From a virus (lineage: Duplodnaviria > Caudoviricetes), in the IMG/VR virus record IMGVR_UViG_3300017989_000015, positions 1-60,167 of that record: a stretch of 60,167 nt of DNA; one strand, given 5' to 3'. Within the stretch, counting starts at the first letter, position 1. Every line of letters starts with the position of its first letter. Made by a program: the position numbers and the translations under genes. This document shows positions 7,627-60,167 of the stretch, piece by piece. A model generated the notes under the pieces. It saw only the letters and a program-made list of their open reading frames with translations, did not search any database and was not told where the DNA came from.

Positions 7627-8153
7627 TCAGGCCAGTTCTCGTCAGCCATAATCTCTGATGCTAATTTCCCTATCCTGATCCCTTCTCGCAGGGCAATGAT
7701 CTGAGCATCTGATAGACTCGCATAGTCTACGTTGACGTTGAAGCTCTCCATCTTGGTTGGCTCGCCTACAATGTCGCGAATCTCCCCGTTCGCTTCTAGC
7801 ACCATATCCAGGTCGCCTTTCGCCCAGGCTGCCCGCTGAACCTCGAAGGCGGTGGCGAGCATGTGGCCGTAGTACTCTTTAATCTTCTCAGCCGACTGAT
7901 CCCGCCATTCTCCCTTTAGTTCTTCGATGTCACGCTCGATGGTCTTCCTATCATAAGGATTGCCTGTCCTTGGGTTCACGGTATAGGATGGATTTGGTTC
8001 TTGGTATCCGTCGCGGCCCGCTCGTGTCTCCTGAGATAGTGCCGTCACAATCTCATGCGTCTTGAGACCACGAATCAGCAGCGACGCTATGCGCTGCCTG
8101 CGTACCTCGTGCATATTAGGTGACCATCGTCTATCTATCGCTCGTACGGACAT
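7623..8153 (-). CDS. terS: Terminase small subunit (HTH)
   Basis: Immediately upstream of terL with an ATGA overlap; HTH-like RKTIERDI. Confidence 0.65.
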   Translation of the reverse strand: MSVRAIDRRWSPNMHEVRRQRIASLLIRGLKTHEIVTALSQETRAGRDGYQEPNPSYTVNPRTGNPYDRKTIERDIEELKGEWRDQSAEKIKEYYGHMLATAFEVQRAAWAKGDLDMVLEANGEIRDIVGEPTKMESFNVNVDYASLSDAQIIALREGIRIGKLASEIMADENWPE

Positions 8154-8196
8154 ATATATGGGAGTCCTTTATAGGAGGCCCGTCCCTCCTATATAT

Positions 8197-8829
8197 TTAC
8201 AAAATGGGCTTATCCTTGACCAGATAGATCGTTGGTAGGCTAACGATGGTTACGACAGCCTTCCAGAGGATTTGTCCTGCCACGATACTCATGGCCGCCA
8301 AGAAAGGTATGGGTTCTCCTCCTAGGATCGGAGGGAGCAGAACAAATGCCAGAACCCCGAATAGAAACGAATCAAGCGGTAGACTGATCGCGTTTGATAA
8401 CAGTACGGCGACCCATTGCGGCCCTCGATCCTTGAACACATGGTAGACCTCAGTGTCTACCAATTGGCTAATCACCTCAGAGATGATGCTTCCTGCCGTG
8501 ACTGCCGGGACGATCGCGAAGACCTGTCCCCATTGCTCCCCGAGGGCAAAGAAAGGAGGGAAAGGCATATTCGCTACCCATGCCAGATAGCCTGCTTGGA
8601 CCACATTGAAAATACCGCACATGATGATCACTGCGCGCGCCCATTCTTTCCCCAGTCTCTTGTGAAGCAAGTCTCGTAGCGTGAAAGTCAGGGCAAAGAC
8701 GAAGGTGCCCGCAGGGAAGGTGATCCCTCGGTAGAACACGAGCTTCGTCGCTCCGATGTCTGCAATAGCCTGACAGATCACATAGCCCCCCACTAGGACT
8801 ATGATGGTCCAGATAGTCGCTTTCTTCAT
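8197..8829 (-). CDS. yhhQ: Queuosine-precursor (preQ0/preQ1) transporter, YhhQ/VUT family
   Basis: About 6 TM helices; PAGTFVFALTFTLRD, SQLVDTEVY and SNAISLPLDS family motifs. Confidence 0.88.
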   Translation of the reverse strand: MKKATIWTIIVLVGGYVICQAIADIGATKLVFYRGITFPAGTFVFALTFTLRDLLHKRLGKEWARAVIIMCGIFNVVQAGYLAWVANMPFPPFFALGEQWGQVFAIVPAVTAGSIISEVISQLVDTEVYHVFKDRGPQWVAVLLSNAISLPLDSFLFGVLAFVLLPPILGGEPIPFLAAMSIVAGQILWKAVVTIVSLPTIYLVKDKPIL

Positions 8830-9161
8830 GTCATACCTCTTTCGATAGTTGCGCTCACCGGCGCATGTACGGTTGTCCGTGCCCGTGCAGTCACGCGCAA
8901 CGGAATGTCACCAAGCGCCTTCGACAACACATCGAAAACGCGACGGGCCATATCTTCTACGGTCATGGCTTCGGTAGCTAGCCCGTTGAGCCAATCCTCG
9001 AAAGACTCGAACTCTAACAGCGTGTCCCCTGGTCGGTAGGTAATATCTAGGACTCCCCAGAAGGGCCGTTTTCCTATAGAGCAGAGTGTCGAGAACGGCG
9101 GCGTATACTCGATCAAATCTACGCAACTATCGTTGGCGATCGTCTTTATATTGTCTGACAT
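8826..9161 (-). CDS. QueF/QueF-like T-fold protein (atypical)
   Basis: FSTLCSIGKRP...ITYRP...LLEFES...TVED pattern of unimodular QueF. It lacks the E(S/L)K(S/A)hK NADPH motif. Likely start MSDNIK at 9161. Confidence 0.7.
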   Translation of the reverse strand: MSDNIKTIANDSCVDLIEYTPPFSTLCSIGKRPFWGVLDITYRPGDTLLEFESFEDWLNGLATEAMTVEDMARRVFDVLSKALGDIPLRVTARARTTVHAPVSATIERGMT

Positions 9162-14318: not shown

Positions 14319-15207
14319 TTTGCTCCTCCTCTGTTAGATAATCGAACAGCCGCTTCAACTGCCATGCCTTTGCCGCGTCCCATGCCGCGTCCCTTGCCGC
14401 GTCCCTTGCCGCGTCCCTTGCCGCGTCCCTTGCCGCGTCCCATGCCGCGTCCCTTGCCGCGGCCCTTGCCACGCCCCTTGCCGCGGCCCTTGCCGCGTCC
14501 CTTGCCGCGTCCCTTGCCGCGGCCCATTCCACGGCCCTTGCCGCGTCCCTTGCCGCGGCCCTTGCGGCGTCCCATGCCGCGTCCCTTGCCGCGGCCCTTG
14601 CCGCGGCCCTTGCCGCGTCCCTTGCCGCGTCCCTTGCCGCGTCCCTTGCCGCGGCCCTTGCGGCGTCCCATACGGCGGCAAGCTCTTCTTGTGTCGCATG
14701 TCCATTGGCGTAGCGCCGCGCTACCTCTATTGCTTTCCGTGGCCGGGCATCATCTGGATATGCCCGCTCGAATATCGGTAACACACGCTCGGCACAGTCT
14801 GAGGCGAATAGCCGCCACTTGCGCGCGGACATGCCACCGACCTTGCGCGGCAACCGGCCTTGATGCCCGTTTACTTTGTCACCGTACTCTTCTACGTCGC
14901 CCTTAAACTCGAGCTCATAGAGAACCCCCTCCTCACAGCAGTACGCCAGGAGGGACTCAATTTCTTCAAGGCTGCCGTGATACCCTTTTTCGCACTCGAC
15001 TAAATCATCGACGGAGTCAGTCCACTCGCCAGGTTCGTACTCTACCCAGCCGCCGTCGCCGTCGCAGCGATCACACCAGGCGCTGTCCTCTGTTCCTCCC
15101 TGCCCGTGGCAAAGCGGGCACTCCACCCATCGCTCTGTCGGCAAAGGCCATGCGAACTTTGCGTACGGCGACTTCCCGTCTGGCGATAACCATTTATAGT
15201 ACGTCAC
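14311..15207 (-). CDS. Phage protein with an Imm5-like domain and AARD/AAWD repeats
   Basis: LFASDCAERVLPIFE...DARPRKAIEVARRYA motif, CxxCxGxG zinc finger, Ala-rich repeats. Confidence 0.7.
   Translation of the reverse strand: MTYYKWLSPDGKSPYAKFAWPLPTERWVECPLCHGQGGTEDSAWCDRCDGDGGWVEYEPGEWTDSVDDLVECEKGYHGSLEEIESLLAYCCEEGVLYELEFKGDVEEYGDKVNGHQGRLPRKVGGMSARKWRLFASDCAERVLPIFERAYPDDARPRKAIEVARRYANGHATQEELAAVWDAARAAARDAARDAARDAARAAARAAARDAAWDAARAAARDAARAVEWAAARDAARDAARAAARGVARAAARDAAWDAARDAARDAARDAARDAAWDAAKAWQLKRLFDYLTEEEQNE
14365..14670. repeat. 12-bp coding tandem repeat, about 25 units (GCGGCAAGGGAC on minus)
   Basis: Directly visible; encodes AARD/AAWD/AARA. Confidence 0.95.
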
Positions 15208-19151: not shown

Positions 19152-19192
19152 TTGGATACTCCCTCTTGTCTCTCTCCCTCAACTCTATGGAC

Positions 19193-19221
19193 ATTATAAC
19201 ACATGTTTGTCTATATGTCAA
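19193..19221 (-). promoter_or_regulatory. Consensus sigma70 early promoter (repeat copy 1 of 4)
   Basis: TTGACA-17 nt-TATAAT, followed by GTCCATAGAGTTGAG. Confidence 0.85.
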
Positions 19222-19343
19222 GAGGCAAATAGGACTTTTTTTGCATTACGCGGAGCTTCATATAAAGAAAGGTCTTCCCAGCTACCACTGCATCACCGAC
19301 TAGCATCATGACCCTCCTAGGGGAGCCGGAAGGCTCCCCTTAT

Positions 19344-21008: not shown

Positions 21009-21046
21009 TTCCGTCCTCCCTGTTTGATTCATTTGACTCTATGGAC

Positions 21047-21075
21047 ATTATAACATATGTTCAACGATATGTCAA
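21047..21075 (-). promoter_or_regulatory. Consensus sigma70 early promoter (copy 2 of 4)
   Basis: TTGACA-17 nt-TATAAT-GTCCATAGAG. Confidence 0.85.
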
Positions 21076-21512
21076 GAGGCAATTTCATAGCCAAGATGAA
21101 CCAGGCGCTCTTGGCTCAACTCGCCGTCAGTGTGCCGCTCGCCCTTGGTTAGCTCATAGGCGCAATAGTCGCAAAGTACCTCAGGATGTACATTCTTAGA
21201 TTCTGGGAATCGGCCATTGTCCCGAGGTATCCCGCACCGCTCGCATCGCAACGCCGGGTCCACCCTTGAATTGCGCAGTAAGCCCTCCTTCTTTCGGTCG
21301 CTGCGACGCCGATAGTCGAACGCCTCGAACGCCTCTCGATCCTCCCGACTCATGTGGGCGAGGGCATAGGCGCGCCCGTCCTTCGATGCCGCCGACCGAC
21401 TACGACCCTGCCTTTCACCGATCTCCACATACGAAAGCCCCTCTTCATAATGCAGCCGCCACGCCTCATACCGCAGATCGAGTCGTTCGCGTGTCCAGTA
21501 TGTCATCGTCAA
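21072..21512 (-). CDS. HTH (sigma70 region 4-like) plus zinc-finger protein, last gene of the type IV-like operon
   Basis: GLSYVEIGERQGRSRSAASK; CERC...CDYC; ATGA overlap with the csf3 stop. Confidence 0.65.
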   Translation of the reverse strand: MTMTYWTRERLDLRYEAWRLHYEEGLSYVEIGERQGRSRSAASKDGRAYALAHMSREDREAFEAFDYRRRSDRKKEGLLRNSRVDPALRCERCGIPRDNGRFPESKNVHPEVLCDYCAYELTKGERHTDGELSQERLVHLGYEIAS

Positions 21513-22267
21513 ACCGCCTCATACCAATCCACCTCAACCTGCGTTCCCACTCTCCATCCAGGCGCGAACAGCCCAGGCAGCCAATAGGGCGGCGTCCATC
21601 CCACGAGAGACGGATACCCCTGGGGCTGGTCTGCGTTCAATAACGAGGCCACGCAGCCCTCTGGGATTGTGCGCGCCAGGGCGAAGTTCTCAACCAATCG
21701 CCATTCCCGCTCATCCGGCTCGATCAGCCAGTGATCCACCGCCCCAAACCCTCTCGCCCGCTCTTTGCCCACCGCCCGCAGATACTCCAATAGCCGCCCA
21801 ACTTCAATCGCATTCCCCACACATCGAATTGTCCACCGATCCGCGATCTCTGTGGGAACGGGCACGCGCCGCTCCATGAATCGCCCATCAGATGGCGAGA
21901 TATTGAATCTCCCTTTCCGCCCTTTGACAAATCTGCCCGACGGATGCTTCTTGTGACGATAACTGACATCCTTGGTGCTCGCGCCTTCTGGATGCGCTGG
22001 GGTTGTGGCCCACAGAGGGAACCCTTCCGCGTCTCTCCACAAACACTGTAACGGCGTAGGCAATAAATATCCTTCCTCGCTCTGGGGGACGCCTTGCCCC
22101 AGCGTTAATTCATGTACCATGCACCAGGCCAGCACGCCGTCCAATAACAGCGGGTCATATCCCGCTATCTGCGCGCCCTGTCGCAATTTCAGCGTGATCT
22201 TTAGCGGCTGCTTTTCCATCGCCTCGTATTCCTGCCACCGTTTGTAGAATCCTGGTAATACAATCAC
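21509..22267 (-). CDS. csf3: Type IV CRISPR-associated Csf3 (Cas5-like RAMP)
   Basis: LLLDGVLAW, LWATTP, CVGNAIEVGRLL, G-rich loop VGKERARGFGAV and C-terminal PPYW. GTG start at 22267 overlaps the methyltransferase stop. Confidence 0.82.
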   Translation of the reverse strand: MIVLPGFYKRWQEYEAMEKQPLKITLKLRQGAQIAGYDPLLLDGVLAWCMVHELTLGQGVPQSEEGYLLPTPLQCLWRDAEGFPLWATTPAHPEGASTKDVSYRHKKHPSGRFVKGRKGRFNISPSDGRFMERRVPVPTEIADRWTIRCVGNAIEVGRLLEYLRAVGKERARGFGAVDHWLIEPDEREWRLVENFALARTIPEGCVASLLNADQPQGYPSLVGWTPPYWLPGLFAPGWRVGTQVEVDWYEAV

Positions 22268-22989
22268 AGCGTCTCCACTTCTGCGCCCATCCGCGTCATA
22301 CGATCCAATATATGCGCCACATAGCGTGGCTCTTTCTCGATCCCAATGCACGATCTTCCCAGTTGGTCGCAGGCCGCCAGCGTGGTACCGCTCCCTGCAA
22401 ACGGGTCAACGACGATCAGCTCCGGCGCAAAGCAGTCGCCAATCAACAGCCGAATCCAGTCCAATGGCTTCTCATGGCGATGCGCCCCCCTCTTGTGCAA
22501 TGCCGAGATCGACTCGCGATAAATCTCCGCAAGACGATTGCCGCGTGCCTTTGTGCCACGCAACTCTCGCTCCGCATAGCGCCGATCCGCTACCCCCGCA
22601 AAATCGCTCCCCTCTTTGCCATAAAAAGCGCCTATGGGATTAAACTGCAACACATCGCCATACCACAGCGCCAACTTGACCTGCATCAGTGGACGGCCCT
22701 CAGCATAGTGGCCACTCATACAGTCCCACACGAACAGCCATGTAGGCGCGCCGAATCGCTCAATCGTTCGGTACATGTACTGTGGATTGGTAAATGCCAG
22801 CACCGACGCATGGCCGCTCGCGTCCAGCCCCTGCGGAATGTGCCACGGCGGATCATACACCAGCGCAGATGGGCGAGTGGGAATCACCCCACTCGCCATC
22901 GCCTCGACGCAATCGCCGCAAATCAAGAGATGACGCCCGCGCCCGCGAATGCGCCACGTCTTTCCCGGCTTGACATGCCATCTATCCAT
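22264..22989 (-). CDS. DNA amino-methyltransferase (N6-A/N4-C, beta class)
   Basis: LICGDC, VYDPPW (motif IV), HEKPLDW, VVDPFAGSGTT (motif I) and GIEKEPRY. Confidence 0.88.
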   Translation of the reverse strand: MDRWHVKPGKTWRIRGRGRHLLICGDCVEAMASGVIPTRPSALVYDPPWHIPQGLDASGHASVLAFTNPQYMYRTIERFGAPTWLFVWDCMSGHYAEGRPLMQVKLALWYGDVLQFNPIGAFYGKEGSDFAGVADRRYAERELRGTKARGNRLAEIYRESISALHKRGAHRHEKPLDWIRLLIGDCFAPELIVVDPFAGSGTTLAACDQLGRSCIGIEKEPRYVAHILDRMTRMGAEVETL

Positions 22990-24407
22990 CAGAACCTCAG
23001 CTTGCCCGTACCCAACGTCCCGTCCACCAATCCCGCAACCAGCTCGTCGCGGTTGGCATCCAAATAGCTCTCATATTCGGTCTCGAACGCCTTGGCCTCC
23101 ACGTGGCGCGTCATCCACAGCGCCTCGTATCGACCATACCCTCTAGCGCCCTGGCCGCCTAATGTAGGCAACTGCTCTAGCGCGTATTGGGTCGCAGCCA
23201 GTAGCGCCCCATGCGTTCTCGCGTGCGTTTGGGGCAACACGTCCAGTTCGACATATACCTGCGCTCCTGTTTTGAGCGCCTCAAATCCCGTAATCATCTG
23301 CCCCAGACCCTGCTCCGTCGCTCTGCGCGTCAGGGTCACGTCGTCTAGCTGGTCAAACGCGCTCACCCCCGCCAGCGCCAATCCGTCTGGCAAAGCGGTG
23401 GCGTTCTCAGCGCATACCAGCCAGGCGCTCACCTGCAACCGGCTGTCTTGCAGAAAGAACGAGCCTACACACCCGCCCAGCAGATCGAGCAGCGGGTATC
23501 GATCCTTGATCTCGGCGGCCAACGCGAACGCATTAGACGGGGCTGCTCCCTCCAAATTGCCGCCATTGACAAACAGCGCCTCTACCATTGCCGGCAATTC
23601 CCCCTCGCCTGGCTTGGCCGCCAACAAACCCAGTCGATCCACCATGTGCATCCATCCGGGCTCTCGCACCAATGAATGGCGAATTGCGTTGCTGCTGATC
23701 GCCGGCACCTCGATCACCCTGGCAGAGCAATCGCTAGGGTCATCGTTCGCCCCAAACTCCATTTCGTGCATTGGCGTCACAAGCGCCATCTTTCCCACCG
23801 CCTGAGCGTACTCTTCGCTGGCTAGCTTTCGAATCTCTGCCCATCGCCGCGCAATAGGGATCACGCTATGCGATTGCGAAATCAAAACACGCAAGGCAGC
23901 CATCTGCGTTCCGCTAGGCACGGACAGCAAATCGAGCAGCTCCAGGTCGTGCTTCCCGCTATGCAACCCCACGTTGAGTAGTTTGCACAACCGGCTCCAG
24001 TAGGCGCGTAGCGTCTGGCTGGGAATCGCCGCCGTGCGCATCCTCGTCTCCAGGTAGCGATAGCGCTCCATCCCTGAGAACAGCCCCTCGCCGTCCTGGC
24101 CGCCGTGCATCTCGATGAACAATCGTGTTAGCGCGACTGCCACAAACTCCGGGAACGGCATGTCCTCAAATATCCCCACCAAATCAGCAGGGACAAGATG
24201 CGCCTGGGCAATGACCGCCATTTGATCACTGCTCGCAGTGGCTTTACTGCCCTCGCTGCGTATGATCTGCCCCTGCCGATTGAACAGCGATTGATTCGAC
24301 CCGTCCGCCGTCGCTGGGTCGTGGTGGCTGACCGGTTGCTGAAACGTCAACAGCAAGCTGTATCTCGCGCGCCTCGCCTCTACACGTAATACGTCACTCA
24401 TGATCAT
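22989..24407 (-). CDS. csf2: Type IV Csf2 (Cas7-like RAMP) with a large Cas11-like insertion
   Basis: LTFQQPVSHH...NQSLFNRQ, VPAISSNAIRH, LFVNGG, PLLDLLGG, QMITGFEAL and G-rich loop LGGQGARGYG. Confidence 0.82.
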   Translation of the reverse strand: MIMSDVLRVEARRARYSLLLTFQQPVSHHDPATADGSNQSLFNRQGQIIRSEGSKATASSDQMAVIAQAHLVPADLVGIFEDMPFPEFVAVALTRLFIEMHGGQDGEGLFSGMERYRYLETRMRTAAIPSQTLRAYWSRLCKLLNVGLHSGKHDLELLDLLSVPSGTQMAALRVLISQSHSVIPIARRWAEIRKLASEEYAQAVGKMALVTPMHEMEFGANDDPSDCSARVIEVPAISSNAIRHSLVREPGWMHMVDRLGLLAAKPGEGELPAMVEALFVNGGNLEGAAPSNAFALAAEIKDRYPLLDLLGGCVGSFFLQDSRLQVSAWLVCAENATALPDGLALAGVSAFDQLDDVTLTRRATEQGLGQMITGFEALKTGAQVYVELDVLPQTHARTHGALLAATQYALEQLPTLGGQGARGYGRYEALWMTRHVEAKAFETEYESYLDANRDELVAGLVDGTLGTGKLRF

Positions 24408-25153
24408 TCTCCCTTTCGCTGCGCAATCAGCAGCGCTACATCAAACCACGGCAATTGCCGTCCCGACACCAACGAATCATCTAGCCTCCGCGTTTCCGCC
24501 AGCCCCACCTCCGTTGCGATTCGGTAGTCGCTCATCAGGCTCTCCGAAATCGCTCTCTTTGTAAACCCCATCTCGTAAATGATCTCAATCGCCTGCAACC
24601 AAATCAATAGCGACGGCCAATCGCAATACACCGTTTGCGCCGCGCCGTTGGCGTACAAATACACGGGCGTCCTGCTTCCCAGCGGCCCCGTGGTCGCCAT
24701 CGGCCAGAGCCGCTTTTTCGGATCCGTTGTCAACAACATCGCCATCGTTTGCCCCGCCCGAGCAGGCCAAATCTCGCGCACGAGGTCGGACCAGCACGGC
24801 CTGGCTTGTTTCGCCGCCGATTCGCGGCTGATCAGCGGGTAATAATATGTCCCGTCCGCGAAAACCAGACATTGCCGTGACGTTGGCATCCCCTCACGCG
24901 GGTTGTTATTGCGAAAACAGATACCCTCGTTTTCGCTAATCCACCCGCCCGGGTTCCCGTGAAACTGCGTGAGAGGGTCTGATGTGGATTTGGTCGCAAA
25001 GTCAGCCGCGTGATACCCGTATGATAGCGACTGCCCGCTAATACAAGAGCGCGCCCCTTCTGGCGCATCTATCGGTCGCTCCTCTAATGGCCCCAGACCG
25101 AGGCCCTTGACCAACAAGTCTGCTACGGTTTCCATTCGCGTGTAATCCGCCAT
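24404..25153 (-). CDS. csf1: Type IV Csf1 (Cas8-like large subunit)
   Basis: 249 aa directly upstream of csf2; degenerate N-terminal zinc finger (SCISG); KKRLWP and GFTKRAI motifs. Confidence 0.68.
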   Translation of the reverse strand: MADYTRMETVADLLVKGLGLGPLEERPIDAPEGARSCISGQSLSYGYHAADFATKSTSDPLTQFHGNPGGWISENEGICFRNNNPREGMPTSRQCLVFADGTYYYPLISRESAAKQARPCWSDLVREIWPARAGQTMAMLLTTDPKKRLWPMATTGPLGSRTPVYLYANGAAQTVYCDWPSLLIWLQAIEIIYEMGFTKRAISESLMSDYRIATEVGLAETRRLDDSLVSGRQLPWFDVALLIAQRKGE

Positions 25154-25323
25154 CGATCCTCCTCTCGCGTAAACGGAACAAACAACGGGCTCCCTTGCAG
25201 TGCAGCAATATCGCGGTTAATCGTTCTGTGCGATACCCCACACCGCGCGGCGAGCTCCCTCGCCAAAAATCCACGCTCTCTGCATAAACGAATGATATAC
25301 AACAGCCGAAGGCCCTGGTTCAT
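25123..25323 (-). CDS. HTH_11-type DNA-binding protein (WYL-regulator-like HTH only)
   Basis: ARELAARCGVSHRTINRDIAAL; overlaps the csf1 start. Confidence 0.75.
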   Translation of the reverse strand: MNQGLRLLYIIRLCRERGFLARELAARCGVSHRTINRDIAALQGSPLFVPFTREEDRWRITREWKP

Positions 25324-25359
25324 CTTTTCTGCGCACCCCTTAGCGCGATTGGCCGCTGC

Positions 25360-25500
25360 TCACAGCCTCACCTTCCTCCGCACCTTCCCACATCGCCCGC
25401 ACACATCCTCGATCACCCACGCCCCCAGCGACGCGCACCAACCCGCCGGCCCACTCGCCCACACGTGCCGGCAAAACAAACGCCTCAACCACCGCAACAT
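25360..25500 (-). CDS. 46-aa zinc-ribbon protein (not in the ORF track)
   Basis: MLRWLRRLFCRHVW...CGRCGKVRRK; paralog of 13223-13366. Confidence 0.65.
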   Translation of the reverse strand: MLRWLRRLFCRHVWASGPAGWCASLGAWVIEDVCGRCGKVRRKVRL

Positions 25501-34001: not shown

Positions 34002-34043
34002 TTCGTGTCCTCCTCTGTCTGTGTGTCTCTCAACTCTGAATCC

Positions 34044-34072
34044 ATTATAACACAGGTTCAGCGATATGTCAA
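34044..34072 (-). promoter_or_regulatory. Consensus sigma70 early promoter (copy 3 of 4)
   Basis: TTGACA-17 nt-TATAAT. Confidence 0.85.
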
Positions 34073-34082
34073 GGCTGTTTTA

Positions 34083-35119: not shown

Positions 35120-35158
35120 TTCATGCCTCCCTTGTTTTCGTGTCTCAACTCTATGGAC

Positions 35159-35187
35159 ATTATAACATAGGTTCAGCGACATGTCAA
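35159..35187 (-). promoter_or_regulatory. Consensus sigma70 early promoter (copy 4 of 4)
   Basis: TTGACA-17 nt-TATAAT-GTCCATAGAGTTGAG. Confidence 0.85.
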
Positions 35188-35203
35188 GAGGCAATTTATA
35201 GCA

Positions 35204-43735: not shown

Positions 43736-46700
43736 CTACACTCCCGCCGTATCTAGGCGCATCGAGATCGTCTGTAGCGACCGCTCAATCCGACCAATCC
43801 GGAATGTTACCATACGCCGTTCTGCCTGATCCTGGACGATGTTCAGCTCCATCTCCATTCTCGTTCCCTCGAAAGCGGATCTAACCGCTGTCCGTATTTG
43901 ATCTGCCCAGGCCGCGCCTCCCATGAGATTGTCTGATTCCGCTTGAAGAGCCTTGATAACGCCCTCTTGAACGATAGAGACGCCGTCTGTCCCTACTGTC
44001 TTGGTTGTAGCCGGAACGTCCTCAATTCCAATAGACCCAAGCCCTGACGCTATAGGCGTCAGGTTGTTGATGGCATTGATGGCCAGCTCCAAGTCCGCAA
44101 TACGGTTCAGTAGCAAGTTGATGTTCCAGATGTTGTCCTCATCGCTCATATTCATGATTTCCATACCGGCTGAGATTGCGTTGCCGATATTGCTGAACAC
44201 GGCTGCGATATTCTCAGAGACCTGGATGCTATAATCAAAGCCGTTCGTAAACAGGTCATCAACGATCTTGAGATGCTCCTGAATGTAGGCGGCGTTCATC
44301 TCCAGATCCGTGAACAGTTCTACTACCACATTCGAGAAGGAGGTGTAATGCTGTCCCGGCTTGAGCGGCGTCTGTACCTGGAGGTCGTTTATCATGCCTG
44401 CAAGATCGAGGATAGAGAATACCTTCTTGATCGTTTCGGTCAGACCAGCGTCCGCCTCGATGTCCGCGCCTGCCTTTTCCCATTCTTCCTTGACTGCCTT
44501 GATGCCCTCACGAACGATAGGCGCTCCCTGTTTCAGCGCCTCGAAGAATCCCGTCAATCTAGTGATAAAGCCCACGCCCGGAGATGTCACGGCAAGATTG
44601 ATGTCCAGCACGGCGAACACTTTTGTGACGTTATCGGCAATCCCAGCAGCCTCGGCCAGTGCCTGCGTCCAAACAGGGTTACTGCTGATCTTCTTGAGAT
44701 AGTCCATGATATAGATACCGACTAACTCAACCTGGCCCATCTTCACCTGAAGACCTCTCCGATCCAGAGAGGCTACCGGCTTTAGATCAGCGAACTCAAG
44801 CTCAATGACCTTGAACACTTTGGTCACATTCTCAGCCACATCCGCAGCCTCGGCTAGTGCCTGCGTCCAGACAGGATTATCCGCAATCTTGCGCAGGTAA
44901 TCCATGATGTAGACGCCAACTACCTCGATCTGGCCCATTTTTACCTGAAGCCCTCGCCGATCAAACGATTTTATCGGCTCTAGGTTGGTAAGCCCAATAT
45001 CCAGAATCTTGAATACCTTGACCACGTTATCAGCGATAGCTGAGGCTTCGTCGAGCGCCTGAACCCAGACCGGATTACTGGCAATAGTGCGCAGATAATC
45101 CATGATCTGCCGACCGGCTATGTCGACCTGTCCCAACTTCTCGTCGATCCCGCCAATACTCAAGTCCTCAAAAGCGCCTACGCCTTTATAGGGTTGGGTC
45201 ATTTGCTCAGTCAGCGTAACCCCAAGCACCTTGAACACTTTGACAATGTTATCAGCAATAGCCGCTGATTCAGCCAGAGCCTGCGTCCAAACGGGATTGC
45301 TTGCAATCTGCCGCAGGTAGTCCAGAATCTGCCTACCCGCCATGTCAATCTGACCCAGCTTCTCCTTGATGCCGCCTATGCTCAAGTCCTCAAAGGCTCC
45401 CTCTCCCCGATAGGGCTGGGTCATTTCCTCAGTGAGGGTAATCCCCAGAACCTTGAAGACCTCAACGACATTATCGACAATCGCAGCCGCCTCCTCCAGT
45501 GCTTGTGTCCAGACAGGATTATCCGCAATCGTTCGCAGATAATCCAGGATGTGCCGGCCTGTGAACTCGACCTGCCCGAAGTATGCGTCAACGTCGGACG
45601 CATATGATTCCGATGAGGCCGGCACAGCCTTATTCAGGCCCACGTCTAATAGCCTGAATACTTCGGTAAGCGGTGCAATGTAATCCTTCACATCGTCGAT
45701 CATGGCTTTCAGATTGTATTGCGGATCGTCGAACCAGCCATAGATAGAGGTCATGGCCCTCTTCACGAACTCGCCCATCCGTTCTAGTCCAGCATATGCC
45801 GCCTCGTCTACCTCTATGTCAGGCAAGGCATCAAGCGCATCCTGAACAGCCTTGATGCTTGAATCGAGGTCTCTTGCAACTTCATCGAGAGTCGCGGTAA
45901 GAGGCTTGGCCGCAGCCTTTGTTTTGGCCGCCGTCCCAGAGAATCCCTTCCCAGTATCTCCCCCGCCATAGTCTCCACCACTCAGCTCAGGTAAGGTGAT
46001 ACTGAAATTGTCCCAGTCCGATTGTAGCTGATCTCGGATTCCTCTTGCCGCGTCTAGCTCGAAGTTCAGAATCTTCAGCGCAGCCTCGGCAGTTGTCTCC
46101 ATCTGATTCAGAACGCCAACGCCGCTATCATGGGCAATCTGTACGCGATTGATGCCGTGCTGTAGCTCGATCTTTTCCTGCTCCGCTAGATCGATGCCCA
46201 GCTCGGAGAGCATTAGCGCCTTCTCTGCACGATTCAGCGCCATGAACTTCTCAGAGCCTTCGAGCTGATTCATGATTCGATCTATGAGGAACTGACGCTG
46301 TTTCTGTAGCTCTTCAACATAGGCTCGCGCCTGATCAAGCTGCTGCTTGAGAATCGTCCTCTGACGAAGTTGCTCCTGGACGCTATAGGCTGCGGACGCC
46401 TTGCTCTCTTGATCTGCAAACTTAGCGGCAAGGTCAGCTGCTTCCTGCTCTCGACCCGCCGCGATGAGCGCATTGTATTCCGCCTGGAATGCCTGCTCTG
46501 CCTGTTGTCGCTCCAGGTTGAAGTTGAACTGAGCGTCGATCTCTGCGTCACGCGCTCCCTGCATAATGTCCGCCAGGCTCTCATTCATGGCATCAAACTG
46601 TGTCTCAGCGGTGTCCTGCATGTCCTCCAGGGCCTCAGCGAACTCATCACTATCAAATGCCTCAGCCAGAATCCCGTCTATCTCTTCCACTTTCCGCGCA

Positions 46701-58660: not shown

Positions 58661-59787
58661 GGAGCACTCCCGCCGTTCCAAACGACGCTGGCAAATTCCG
58701 GCCCTGCTGGTGTGCAGTTGCCATTGACCAGATCATAGACCTCTTCTAGCGCCGTCGTTGGCGGGCATACCGCCTGATAGGTGCCACCTGGCGTAGCGTT
58801 GCCCGCGCCACCAAGATCTAACTCTGGCGTCGCGTCCGTCATGGTGGCTTTTAGCGCGAGGAATCCAGCGATGATGTTCTCAGCGCTGGCCTGGGTCATA
58901 TTGCAATCGTTGGCCGTAAACTCCTCTATCCCTGTCCAAACGATGTCTGCCGAATTAGCGCAAGCGACAGTTATCAGCGGGCAATCGGATAGGGAAAACC
59001 AGGACGACAGTCCCCAGCCGACCATGTCGGCACTGTCCAATTGCCCCGTTACACTCGGGCAATTGTATAGGAGAAACCGGTACGACAGGCCCCAGCCGAC
59101 CATGTCGGCACTGTCCAATTGCCCCGTTACACTCGGGCAATTGTATAGGTAAAACCAGTGCGACAGGCCCCAGCCGGTCATGTCTGCCGAATCCAATTGG
59201 CCAGTCATCAACGGGCAATTGTAAAGGGAAAACCGGTACGACAGTCCCCAGCCGGTCATGTCTGCCGAATCCAATTGGCCAGTCATCAACGAGCAGTTGT
59301 ATAGGGAAAACCGGTACGACAGGCCCCAGCTGGTCATGTCGGCACTGTCCAATTGCCCCGTTACACTCGGGCAATTGTATAGGAAAAACTGATACGACAG
59401 TCCCCAGCCGACCATATCTGCCGAATGGACCGTCTGTGCTTTGGACAATCCGTTCAGATAGAATGTTTCCATGCTGCGGCATCCGCGCAGGTCGCGGGTA
59501 TTCAGTCCGCCGAGCTTGTCATCGCGCAGGTCTAGCGTCGTGATGGCGCTGGCCTTGTACACGACGATGGCGTATTCTCCCGTCGCCGCGTAGACGTGCG
59601 ATAACGCGGCTACATGGCCCGCCGCGACCTGCTCCCGGCTCCCGTCCCCCCAGTCGATGGCGGTTGGAACGGAATGCGTGATTTGTTGCAGCGTTACGGT
59701 TTGTCCTGCGCCCGTCGTTGTGGCGGTTAGGTGCAGGACGGCATTGTCAGGCGCTCGGATTTGGCTCAATGGCAATGCGCCTATCAT
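58657..59787 (-). CDS. PKD-like plus LRR-like repeat protein (adhesin / receptor-binding candidate)
   Basis: IDWGDG...HVYA PKD motif; six 26-aa repeats LYNCPxxTGQLDSADMxGWGLS. Confidence 0.7.
   Translation of the reverse strand: MIGALPLSQIRAPDNAVLHLTATTTGAGQTVTLQQITHSVPTAIDWGDGSREQVAAGHVAALSHVYAATGEYAIVVYKASAITTLDLRDDKLGGLNTRDLRGCRSMETFYLNGLSKAQTVHSADMVGWGLSYQFFLYNCPSVTGQLDSADMTSWGLSYRFSLYNCSLMTGQLDSADMTGWGLSYRFSLYNCPLMTGQLDSADMTGWGLSHWFYLYNCPSVTGQLDSADMVGWGLSYRFLLYNCPSVTGQLDSADMVGWGLSSWFSLSDCPLITVACANSADIVWTGIEEFTANDCNMTQASAENIIAGFLALKATMTDATPELDLGGAGNATPGGTYQAVCPPTTALEEVYDLVNGNCTPAGPEFASVVWNGGSAP
58978..59428. repeat. 78-bp coding tandem repeat, about 5.8 copies
   Basis: Units begin at 58978, 59056, 59134, 59212, 59290 and 59368. 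Confidence 0.92.
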
Positions 59788-60044: not shown

Positions 60045-60167
60045 CGTCATCTGACGATCTCCGACAGCCGCCGTCGTCGCCAATGACACCTGTATCGACA
60101 ATAATTGCCAAACCTTGGAAGCCGTTACAGCGATCGTTTTGTCGCTGTCGTCTGCCGTTACATCTGC
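60045..60167. repeat. Direct terminal repeat, identical to 1-123
   Basis: Exact copy of the window start. Confidence 0.95.

Follow-up and report, generated by a model that had tools for sequence, protein, structure and literature searches.

A phage-borne, array-less type IV-B Csf operon with a methyltransferase in place of cysH hints that type IV-B works with a nucleic-acid-modifying enzyme

Introduction

Type IV-B is a widespread CRISPR-Cas subtype whose function was still described as unclear as of 2026 (PMC13676074; this and the following sources are cited from the passages of their text that were available). Its usual partner gene, cysH, has been called 'strictly conserved' (PMC8175902) or 'nearly invariant' (PMC7038947) and is said to be the key, and earlier speculation connected it with epigenetic or restriction-modification-related functions (PMC7038947). 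The catalytic cysteine on which sulphur chemistry depends is reportedly missing from CasCysH (PMC8175902). The type IV-B modules of the Bathyarchaeia 'Fuxivirus' (PMC10848311) and of a Methanoperedens virus (bioRxiv 10.1101/2023.08.02.551345) have been interpreted as possible counter-defence. In bacteriophage exclusion (BREX) systems, the PglX methyltransferase of type 1 and the PAPS-reductase-domain protein BrxP of type 4 are alternative modifying components (bioRxiv 10.1101/2024.06.03.597175). Here we describe a type IV-B Csf operon in IMG/VR record IMGVR_UViG_3300017989_000015, a Caudoviricetes genome of 60,167 nucleotides (nt) that was analysed over its full length and is referred to below as the window.

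The operon is a phage-borne, array-less type IV-B Csf effector module without cysH, in which a methyltransferase stands in the place of that gene. Comparison with related loci shows that this accessory slot is evolutionarily exchangeable. No type IV-B locus with a methyltransferase or a radical S-adenosylmethionine (SAM) enzyme in the cysH position was found in the literature, a search that did not cover supplementary tables (e.g. Supplementary Data S1 of PMC7038947), which may list cases; the available passages of PMC12669027 and PMC11437467 describe no such locus either.

An array-less Csf operon without cysH

The phage genome is complete, with a 123-nt direct terminal repeat (bases 1-123 equal to 60045-60167) and a record class of 100% completeness, and coding lies mostly on the minus strand across its 60 kb. 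The operon occupies this strand from 25323 to 21072 as a single chain of six coupled open reading frames (ORFs), in the order helix-turn-helix (HTH) gene, csf1, cas7 (csf2) with an inserted Cas11, methyltransferase, cas5 (csf3) and HTH/zinc-ribbon gene. As read directly from the sequence, the HTH gene overlaps the csf1 start (ATG 25153, with GAGGAGG upstream) by 31 nt, the csf1 stop and cas7 start meet in ATGA at 24407-24404, the methyltransferase start overlaps the cas7 stop in TGATG at 22991-22987, and its own stop overlaps the cas5 start in GTGA at 22267-22264. At the final junction, 21512-21509 reads TTGA, and the last gene likely starts at ATG 21506, 2 nt past the cas5 stop, which gives a protein of 144 amino acids (aa) like database protein P0155. 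A second public record (L111), from a genome bin, agrees with the window at every position over 11,410 nt (100% identity). As it carries the same arrangement, an assembly chimera is unlikely and was rejected as an explanation.

No CRISPR-like array or mini-array was found by a repeat search of the window, and an Rfam scan of its whole length returned no family. The PAPS_reductase/CysH profile (PF01507) had no match in the complete genome at E <= 1, the control being matched in 14 of 14 genomes. Searches of the complete genome for Cas1, Helicase_C_2 (DinG-type), Cas6e and Cas6 were negative as well, while the controls in reference genomes were positive; no search was made for Cas2 or RecD. A 78-nt tandem repeat (58968-59426, 5.6 copies) was considered as an RNA source and dropped, as it lies inside a 376-aa minus-strand ORF with a 26-codon period; it is probably a 26-residue protein repeat.

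Much of this had been proposed in an initial annotation made from the letters of the window and its ORF list. Its array-less, type IV-B-like Csf operon in a complete genome is borne out by PADLOC, Foldseek and solved-chain matches and by the terminal repeat, and its HTH/csf1 overlap and the junctions ATGA, TGATG and GTGA are those given above, while a second ATGA that it placed at 21509-21512 is the TTGA just mentioned. The absence of an array, cas1, cas6, dinG and cysH likewise stands for the complete genome, cas2 being the member of that list not searched. It had also recognised a beta-class methyltransferase with DPPW and DPFAGSG where cysH is expected, which agrees with a PF01555 match and with the cysH-like gene that relatives carry at this position.

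The methyltransferase in the slot

The gene between cas7 and cas5 (22264-22989, minus strand) encodes a predicted beta-class N6/N4 amino-methyltransferase of 241 aa, with matches to PF01555 (9.1e-18, 65.4 bits against a cut-off of 26.7) and phrog_67 (9.3e-22). Enzymes of the beta class have motif IV (D/S-P-P-Y/F/W) N-terminal to motif I (FxGxG), and this is the order found here, with DPPW at residues 46-49 as motif IV and DPFAGSG at 195-201 as motif I. D46, P47, D195 and G199 are invariant in the alignment of the subfamily. In the whole-genome PF01555 scan the protein scores 64 bits and is the only N6_N4 methyltransferase of the genome, in which profile scans found no C5 or D12 methyltransferase. 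DPPW further serves as the catalytic motif in enzymes of the MT-A70/METTL3 type, which prefer single-stranded substrates; this is only a lead, and Pfam gave no MT-A70 match for the protein. A structure co-prediction of Cas5 and Csf1 with the methyltransferase as partner scored 0.22 against a mark of 0.32, in a run without controls, and so speaks neither for nor against an interaction.

The window enzyme shares 34-45% identity with its 14 nearest homologue clusters (P0080-P0093). Proteins of 383-418 aa make up 11 of them, 6 of the 14 have a precomputed ParB_N domain (PF02195), and an N-terminal ParB-like region is visible in the alignment for most. The window methyltransferase begins at the ParB-domain boundary and has no ParB_N domain, and a PF02195 search of the complete genome gave no match anywhere. 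The enzyme has thus lost the ParB domain carried by most of its nearest homologues.

Slot contents and polarity of the exchange

In all, 110 loci were collected, of which 26 are viral and, from scans of metagenome and genome collections with a 10-sequence alignment, 79 are metagenomic and 5 come from genome bins. Gene orders for these loci were obtained by iterative profile searches over all ORFs. Both cas7 and cas5 are present in 90 loci, 63 of these have a full-length fused Cas7, and dereplication left 40 lineages. The genome-bin loci are all from Chloroflexota (5/5), including Anaerolineales and Bellilinea, and the csf module belongs to a large clade in viral contigs and Chloroflexota-binned contigs.

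In 33 of the 40 lineages the slot holds a CysH-like gene, which lies either between cas7 and cas5 or immediately behind cas5 (32 by automatic labelling and L012, whose cysH ORF was masked there by an overlapping ORF and was counted by an earlier gene-order search). The CysH-like family retains the invariant PP-loop motif SxGKDS. One lineage (L014) has only a longer PAPS_reduct/DUF3440 gene further downstream, two (L018 and L019) have no recognisable accessory enzyme, three have a B12-binding radical-SAM gene in place of cysH, and in one, the window, the methyltransferase takes this place. The radical-SAM proteins, of 419-467 aa, are encoded at 2075-3361 in L010 (with which L075 is grouped), 2586-3845 in L061 and 3672-5075 in L073. 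The Cas7 proteins of these three lineages do not form one clade but stand each beside different cysH-bearing sisters, and an approximately unbiased (AU) test rejects joining them (p = 0.00013, for a group that was named after the tree was seen).

Other loci have additional genes beside cysH, namely glycosyltransferases of the GT2 and GT25 families, an uncharacterised 235-aa protein and, in L016, a Cas6e-like protein. In L061, L073 and L013 a full ParB-methyltransferase follows at a short distance downstream of cas5; in L061 the gene directly after cas5 encodes an N6/N4 methyltransferase of 390 aa. The Cas6e-like gene of L016 (7386-8096; PF08798, 1.3e-19) is located between cas7 and cysH in a phage type IV-B locus, and no CRISPR-like array was found within the 13.4 kb of this contig. 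An expanded slot of five genes is seen in L067 (3901-7836) and also in L070, L072 and L114. In L067 these are a 288-aa ORF without assignment, a PAPS_reduct+DUF3440 gene, a ParB-like/HTH protein, a weak methyltransferase-like ORF with DPPW, and a CysH-like gene; we take the second to be IbrA-like and the third to be IbrB-like. L018 and L019, in which no CysH-like gene was detected, each have an ORF without a Pfam match after cas7-cas5 (8147-8839, 230 aa, and 7889-8725, 278 aa, respectively), possibly another accessory protein.

In a careful maximum-likelihood tree of 40 Cas7 proteins, the window is sister to L001/L035 (100/98), followed by L017 (100/100) and L037 (99/95). These four nearest relatives all carry cysH in the slot, and for this reason the methyltransferase is the derived state. 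The nearest of them is L001, with 72% Cas7 identity; its cas7 and cas5 flank a PAPS-reductase-like gene of 270 aa whose product finds BrxP as its best PADLOC match. More distant surveyed relatives have the canonical type IV-B order csf1-cas11-cas7-cas5-cysH. The window branches from within cysH-bearing loci, and these merge gradually into the ones with the canonical order. Conservation reaches the very C-terminus of Cas7 and begins at the first codon of Cas5, and the 4-nt stop/start overlap of the methyltransferase with cas5 equals that of cysH in L001, L003, L004, L007, L008, L017 and L026. The exchange is an exact like-for-like replacement of cysH that kept translational coupling on both sides.

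A survey of csf2 neighbourhoods for an exchange between methyltransferase and cysH had been proposed with the initial annotation. The exchange itself was found, with cysH in 33 of 40 lineages and the methyltransferase in the window, but the methyltransferase swap does not recur outside one lineage. The same annotation had regarded a lack of the methyltransferase in close homologous loci as the mark of a recent passenger insertion. Close loci do lack it and carry cysH, yet the gene is a coupled replacement of its counterpart and not an added passenger.

All csf genes of the window are intact, and every family-invariant residue of Cas7 and Cas5 is retained. The terminal Cas7 branch of the window, at 0.158, does not exceed the path leading to its sisters (stem 0.29). 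Relative to L001, the proteins are 64-72% identical, synonymous sites are saturated (proportion of synonymous differences, pS, about 0.72), and the rough ratio of nonsynonymous to synonymous change (dN/dS) is about 0.11-0.13, with saturated dS. This ratio and the unaccelerated branch indicate that the csf genes are still under constraint.

Subunits of the Csf module

Profile and Foldseek comparisons matched the three core ORFs to Csf1, Csf2 and Csf3, as had been predicted, Csf1 at the family level only. The cas5 gene (csf3; 21509-22267, minus strand; 252 aa from GTG 22267, longest ORF 280 aa) matches PADLOC typeIV_Cas5 at 6.6e-29 and NCBIfam cas5_csf3 at 2.9e-11, the latter below the curated cut-off of that model. 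Its family profile matches the solved Csf3 chains 8rc3_F (5.4e-18) and 7xfz_B (1.2e-17) over nearly the full length. GTG 22267 is the true start, as the protein then begins with MIVLPG, in register with the 'MI' starts of 35 relatives.

The backbone subunit Cas7 (csf2; ORF472; 22989-24407, minus strand) has 472 aa, or 470 aa from a second ATG at 24401 that is the start of database protein P0001. It matches PADLOC typeIV_Cas7 at 2e-26 over residues 231-458 and has homologues in 78 clusters of about 440-500 aa. The family profile matches the type IV-B Csf2 chain 7jhy_e at 1.6e-6 and no type IV-A Csf2 at E <= 0.01. With an AlphaFold2 (AF2) model (predicted local distance difference test, pLDDT, 81), Foldseek returned type IV-A Csf2 chains at 3.5e-7 and the type IV-B chain 7jhy_a at 4.7e-5, with probability 1.0.

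A Cas11-like helical domain, missed at first, lies inside Cas7 at about residues 58-205 (23793-24236, minus strand; PADLOC typeIV_Cas11 1.1e-4, residues 93-174). The AF2 model has two N-terminal strands, an all-helical block from 58 to 201 and then the RNA recognition motif (RRM) core. More distant relatives have split counterparts (L087, L089, L094, L098 and L107). There, a separate Cas11 ORF of 140-152 aa matches positions 70-204 of the fused profile, and the Cas7 protein of 277-286 aa matches it in two pieces, its first ~40 residues at 10-46 and the rest at 227-473. As the mapping of the split loci and the AF2 model agree, csf2 also includes the small subunit. Cas11 is here an internal domain of Cas7, neither a separate gene nor a terminal fusion, an architecture of which the available passages of the type IV literature make no mention.

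Csf1 (ORF249; 24404-25153, minus strand; 249 aa), the Cas8-like large subunit, is placed by family-level profile and fold matches. The window protein alone had no match in four profile libraries, and the family profile gave only spurious zinc-finger matches among PDB sequences. Of the family members, 20 of 40 match PADLOC typeIV_Cas8 Csf1_0_IV (best 4.4e-15); jackhmmer puts ORF249 homologues upstream of cas7 in relatives, and the csf1 position is held in all loci. The AF2 model (pLDDT 95) has chains of type IV-A Csf complexes as its top three Foldseek matches in the PDB, namely 7xg1_A (a borderline E of 1.5e-3; template modelling score, TM, 0.56), 8rc3_G and 8rc2_G, none of which is a Csf3 chain and whose subunits are unnamed. 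The assignment of ORF249 to Csf1 is accordingly supported at the family level only.

Operon boundaries and neighbouring features

The first gene of the operon (25123-25323, minus strand) encodes an HTH regulator of 66 aa that matches Pfam HTH_11 (1.3e-6) and the HTH part of a PADLOC WYL-type regulator profile (5.5e-9). Homologous ORFs adjoin csf operons in several relatives (e.g. L003, L032, L035, L043, L053 and L059). The last gene (21072-21506, minus strand) encodes a protein of 144 aa (144-146 by start) with an HTH and a four-cysteine zinc ribbon, a weak match to Sigma70_r4_2 (1.8e-4) and a very weak one to the GcrA family (E 0.057). Its residues C88, C91, C112 and C115 are invariant in its family, which is tiny, with 10 clusters among 1.84 billion representatives. 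Among the collected loci the gene is present only in the window and the identical second record; it is lineage-specific and outside the conserved csf module.

A sigma-70 consensus promoter, TTGACA-17-TATAAT (21047-21075, minus strand, 12/12 match), overlaps the stop codon of the last gene and makes the 3' boundary of the operon clear. It is part of one of four copies of a 64-nt repeat (repeat family D7; 19165-19228, 21019-21082, 34016-34079 and 35131-35194), each with a near-perfect or perfect minus-strand TTGACA-17-TATAAT. These repeats are probably the strong promoters of the phage, delimiting its transcription units. Upstream of the operon lies a G-rich intergenic stretch of 176 nt (25324-25500), for which relatives offered no alignable counterpart and which yielded no guide-RNA candidate. 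A search for consensus promoters immediately before the HTH gene was negative. The next genes in this direction encode a replication initiator and a DnaB-like helicase. A nucleotide search of the operon against GenBank phages gave no match. Among sequencing runs searched for this DNA, none of RNA was listed as containing it, and the four DNA runs that do may be its source samples. Elsewhere in the window, a 12-nt unit is repeated 25 times with 89% matches (14370-14669), and 44600-45589 contains repeats of 198 and 222 nt.

Discussion

The swap of cysH for a methyltransferase hints that type IV-B works with a nucleic-acid-modifying enzyme. In our preferred reading, to which we give a probability of about 0.5, such an enzyme works with the Csf complex and is exchangeable in the slot, which acts as its socket. 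The slot enzyme would be the working partner of the module and would modify nucleic acid held by the Csf filament. This is suggested by its position and translational coupling, by the replacement of cysH rather than an addition to it, by the loss of the methyltransferase's own ParB-like domain, by the recurrence of other modifying enzymes in the slot, and by the precedent of BREX, where the PglX methyltransferase and a PAPS-reductase-domain protein are alternatives. It also agrees with what had been speculated about cysH (PMC7038947). The default filler would be a PP-loop ATPase (CysH-like), which could be replaced by a methyltransferase or a B12-binding radical-SAM enzyme, and the glycosyltransferases and the IbrA/IbrB-like module would be add-ons to the slot. 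The Csf ribonucleoprotein filament would bind or present the nucleic-acid substrate and, in the window, might serve for DNA loading in place of the lost ParB domain. The slot enzyme would then mark this substrate, here by N6-adenine or N4-cytosine methylation, and the phage would likely benefit in conflict with host defences or rival elements. Perhaps, and more tentatively, type IV-B Csf complexes are in general nucleic-acid-binding platforms for a plug-in modifying enzyme and not interference or sequestration devices. In this case the Csf filament of the window might recruit or activate the ParB-less methyltransferase as a Cas-scaffolded epigenetic writer, possibly on single-stranded or R-loop nucleic acid.

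Several points weigh against such a partnership. Nucleic acids need not be the substrates of glycosyltransferases or B12-binding radical-SAM enzymes, and both the interaction and the activity of any type IV-B accessory enzyme with Csf are predictions only. A methyltransferase in the slot without cysH is limited to one lineage (the window and the identical L111), all close relatives having cysH. The nearest methyltransferase in viral contigs (L028, 46% identity) stands alone, and 1 of the 79 loci of the subfamily in viral contigs (L147) has csf genes in its flank, at a distance of 3.8 kb; the ParB-less relatives P0092 and P0085 in viral contigs are not in csf operons. With its nearest homologues standing alone and 1/79 near csf, the enzyme comes from the common pool of orphan phage methyltransferases, the ordinary role of which is anti-restriction self-methylation. 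The sequences point to no Csf-specific methyltransferase clade and to none that is long-standing, which counts against deep functional integration. As methyltransferases and csf genes share the replication/early module, some co-location is expected from synteny alone. The composition of the methyltransferase gene is not distinctive (GC content at third codon positions, GC3, 0.665 against a genome mean of 0.625, standard deviation 0.054), and with this unremarkable composition and saturated synonymous sites the swap cannot be dated.

Alternatively, the enzyme could be an independent passenger, an orphan anti-restriction methyltransferase that displaced cysH by cassette recombination between the conserved cas7/cas5 flanks and acts alone. 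The Csf module would then work without an accessory enzyme or do something unrelated, e.g. RNA/crRNA sequestration. We regard this as a serious contender, although not as the favoured explanation. Besides the single lineage among cysH-bearing close relatives and nearest homologues that are stand-alone ParB-methyltransferases of phages or metagenome-assembled genomes, it can draw on L018 and L019, which apparently run cas7-cas5 without a recognisable accessory enzyme, and on the genome itself, where this is the only DNA methyltransferase detected of the three families searched and so would be needed anyway for self-protection. Independence is harder to reconcile with the exactness of the replacement, in which stop/start overlaps were kept on both sides, and with the loss of the ParB domain in a genome that has no ParB. 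Moreover, cysH was replaced and not joined, in three lineages a different SAM-dependent enzyme came independently to occupy the same slot, and no sign of relaxed constraint is seen in the csf genes. The methyltransferase might also be directed to complementary DNA by a guide RNA in the Cas7 filament, as had been suggested for this operon, and Cas7, Cas5 and Csf1 are homologous, by fold and profile matches, to subunits of crRNA-dependent DNA-binding type IV-A complexes. A Cas6e-like gene in the slot of the relative L016 would fit as well, but L016 has no array in its 13.4 kb. Such site-specific methylation is improbable in the window, which has no array, mini-array, Cas6, Rfam match or conserved non-coding element that could be found, and whose sequence upstream of the operon shows no conservation with relatives; beyond the homology to crRNA-guided type IV-A complexes, our analysis offers it no support. 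In the available accounts, the only type IV-B complex studied assembled on heterogeneous non-CRISPR RNA (PMC7937560; PMC8175902).

Given the strict or near-invariant linkage of cysH in type IV-B (PMC8175902; PMC7038947), its loss might instead have disabled the module, leaving a decaying remnant whose csf genes are heading to pseudogenes. This is very unlikely for an operon in which all ORFs are intact and translationally coupled, the family-invariant residues of Cas7 and Cas5 are all retained, and neither branch acceleration nor an elevated dN/dS (about 0.11-0.13 against L001, dS saturated) is seen. We also give very little credence to an epigenetic regulatory pair unrelated to Csf, with the methyltransferase as writer and the HTH/zinc-ribbon protein as reader controlling phage transcription. 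Both genes are lineage-specific within the operon, and the sigma-70 region-4-like HTH of the last protein, with its GcrA-family match, could suit a reader. That match, however, is far below significance, cas5 separates the two genes, and the HTH/zinc-ribbon family is small and uncharacterised.

The locus is a natural experiment: the effector is the same, and in a clean exchange for cysH it has received an enzyme whose chemistry, nucleobase methyl transfer, is known. Together with the radical-SAM, glycosyltransferase and IbrA/IbrB-like variants, it turns the vague idea of a perhaps epigenetic function into a testable one, and assays of a methyltransferase pose much less difficulty than those of an orphan PP-loop ATPase. 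True coupling to Csf would make the locus a natural system for Cas-tethered methylation of DNA or RNA; even without such coupling, it still shows that type IV-B modules can persist when CysH is absent.

Comparison with known systems

The canonical type IV-B system of the Mycobacterium sp. JS623 plasmid (PDB 7JHY) shares with the window the presence of Csf1, Cas11, Csf2/Cas7 and Csf3/Cas5, the lack of an array, Cas6, Cas1 and DinG, and carriage by a mobile element. It differs in that the window genome has no cysH-like gene and a DNA methyltransferase in its place, that Cas11 is inserted after the first ~50 residues of Cas7 and is not a separate gene, and that the accessory gene is located between cas7 and cas5 and not after cas5. 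A type IV-B effector module in a viral genome is, according to the accessible parts of the descriptions, also found in 'Fuxivirus' and the Methanoperedens virus (PMC10848311; bioRxiv 10.1101/2023.08.02.551345). Both of these keep a CysH-like gene next to cas5, whereas the window has no cysH, and 'Fuxivirus' has a mini-array and a stand-alone methyltransferase elsewhere in its genome, whereas the methyltransferase of the window is inside the operon.

Among type IV systems with other accessory enzymes, type IV-A (CasDinG) and the IV-D variant (RecD) have the same Csf core, and a subtype-specific accessory enzyme likewise defines what the Csf complex does. Their accessories are helicases that go with crRNA-guided DNA binding, in contrast to the window, which has no DinG-type helicase match, array or Cas6. 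The phage ParB-methyltransferase fusions (PF02195 + PF01555; phrog_67) belong to the same catalytic subfamily as the window enzyme (34-45% identity) and share the motifs HRLxCGD, DPPW, FVWDC, HxKPxDW and DPFAGSGTT with it. The window protein differs from them by the lack of the ParB-like N-terminal domain of ~150-190 residues and by being embedded in a Cas operon. Finally, the identical pair of enzyme families is exchanged within one multi-gene system in BREX type 1 and type 4, as far as the available text describes them. BREX, however, has no Cas proteins, and the direction of the exchange in the window is from a PAPS-reductase-like protein to a methyltransferase.

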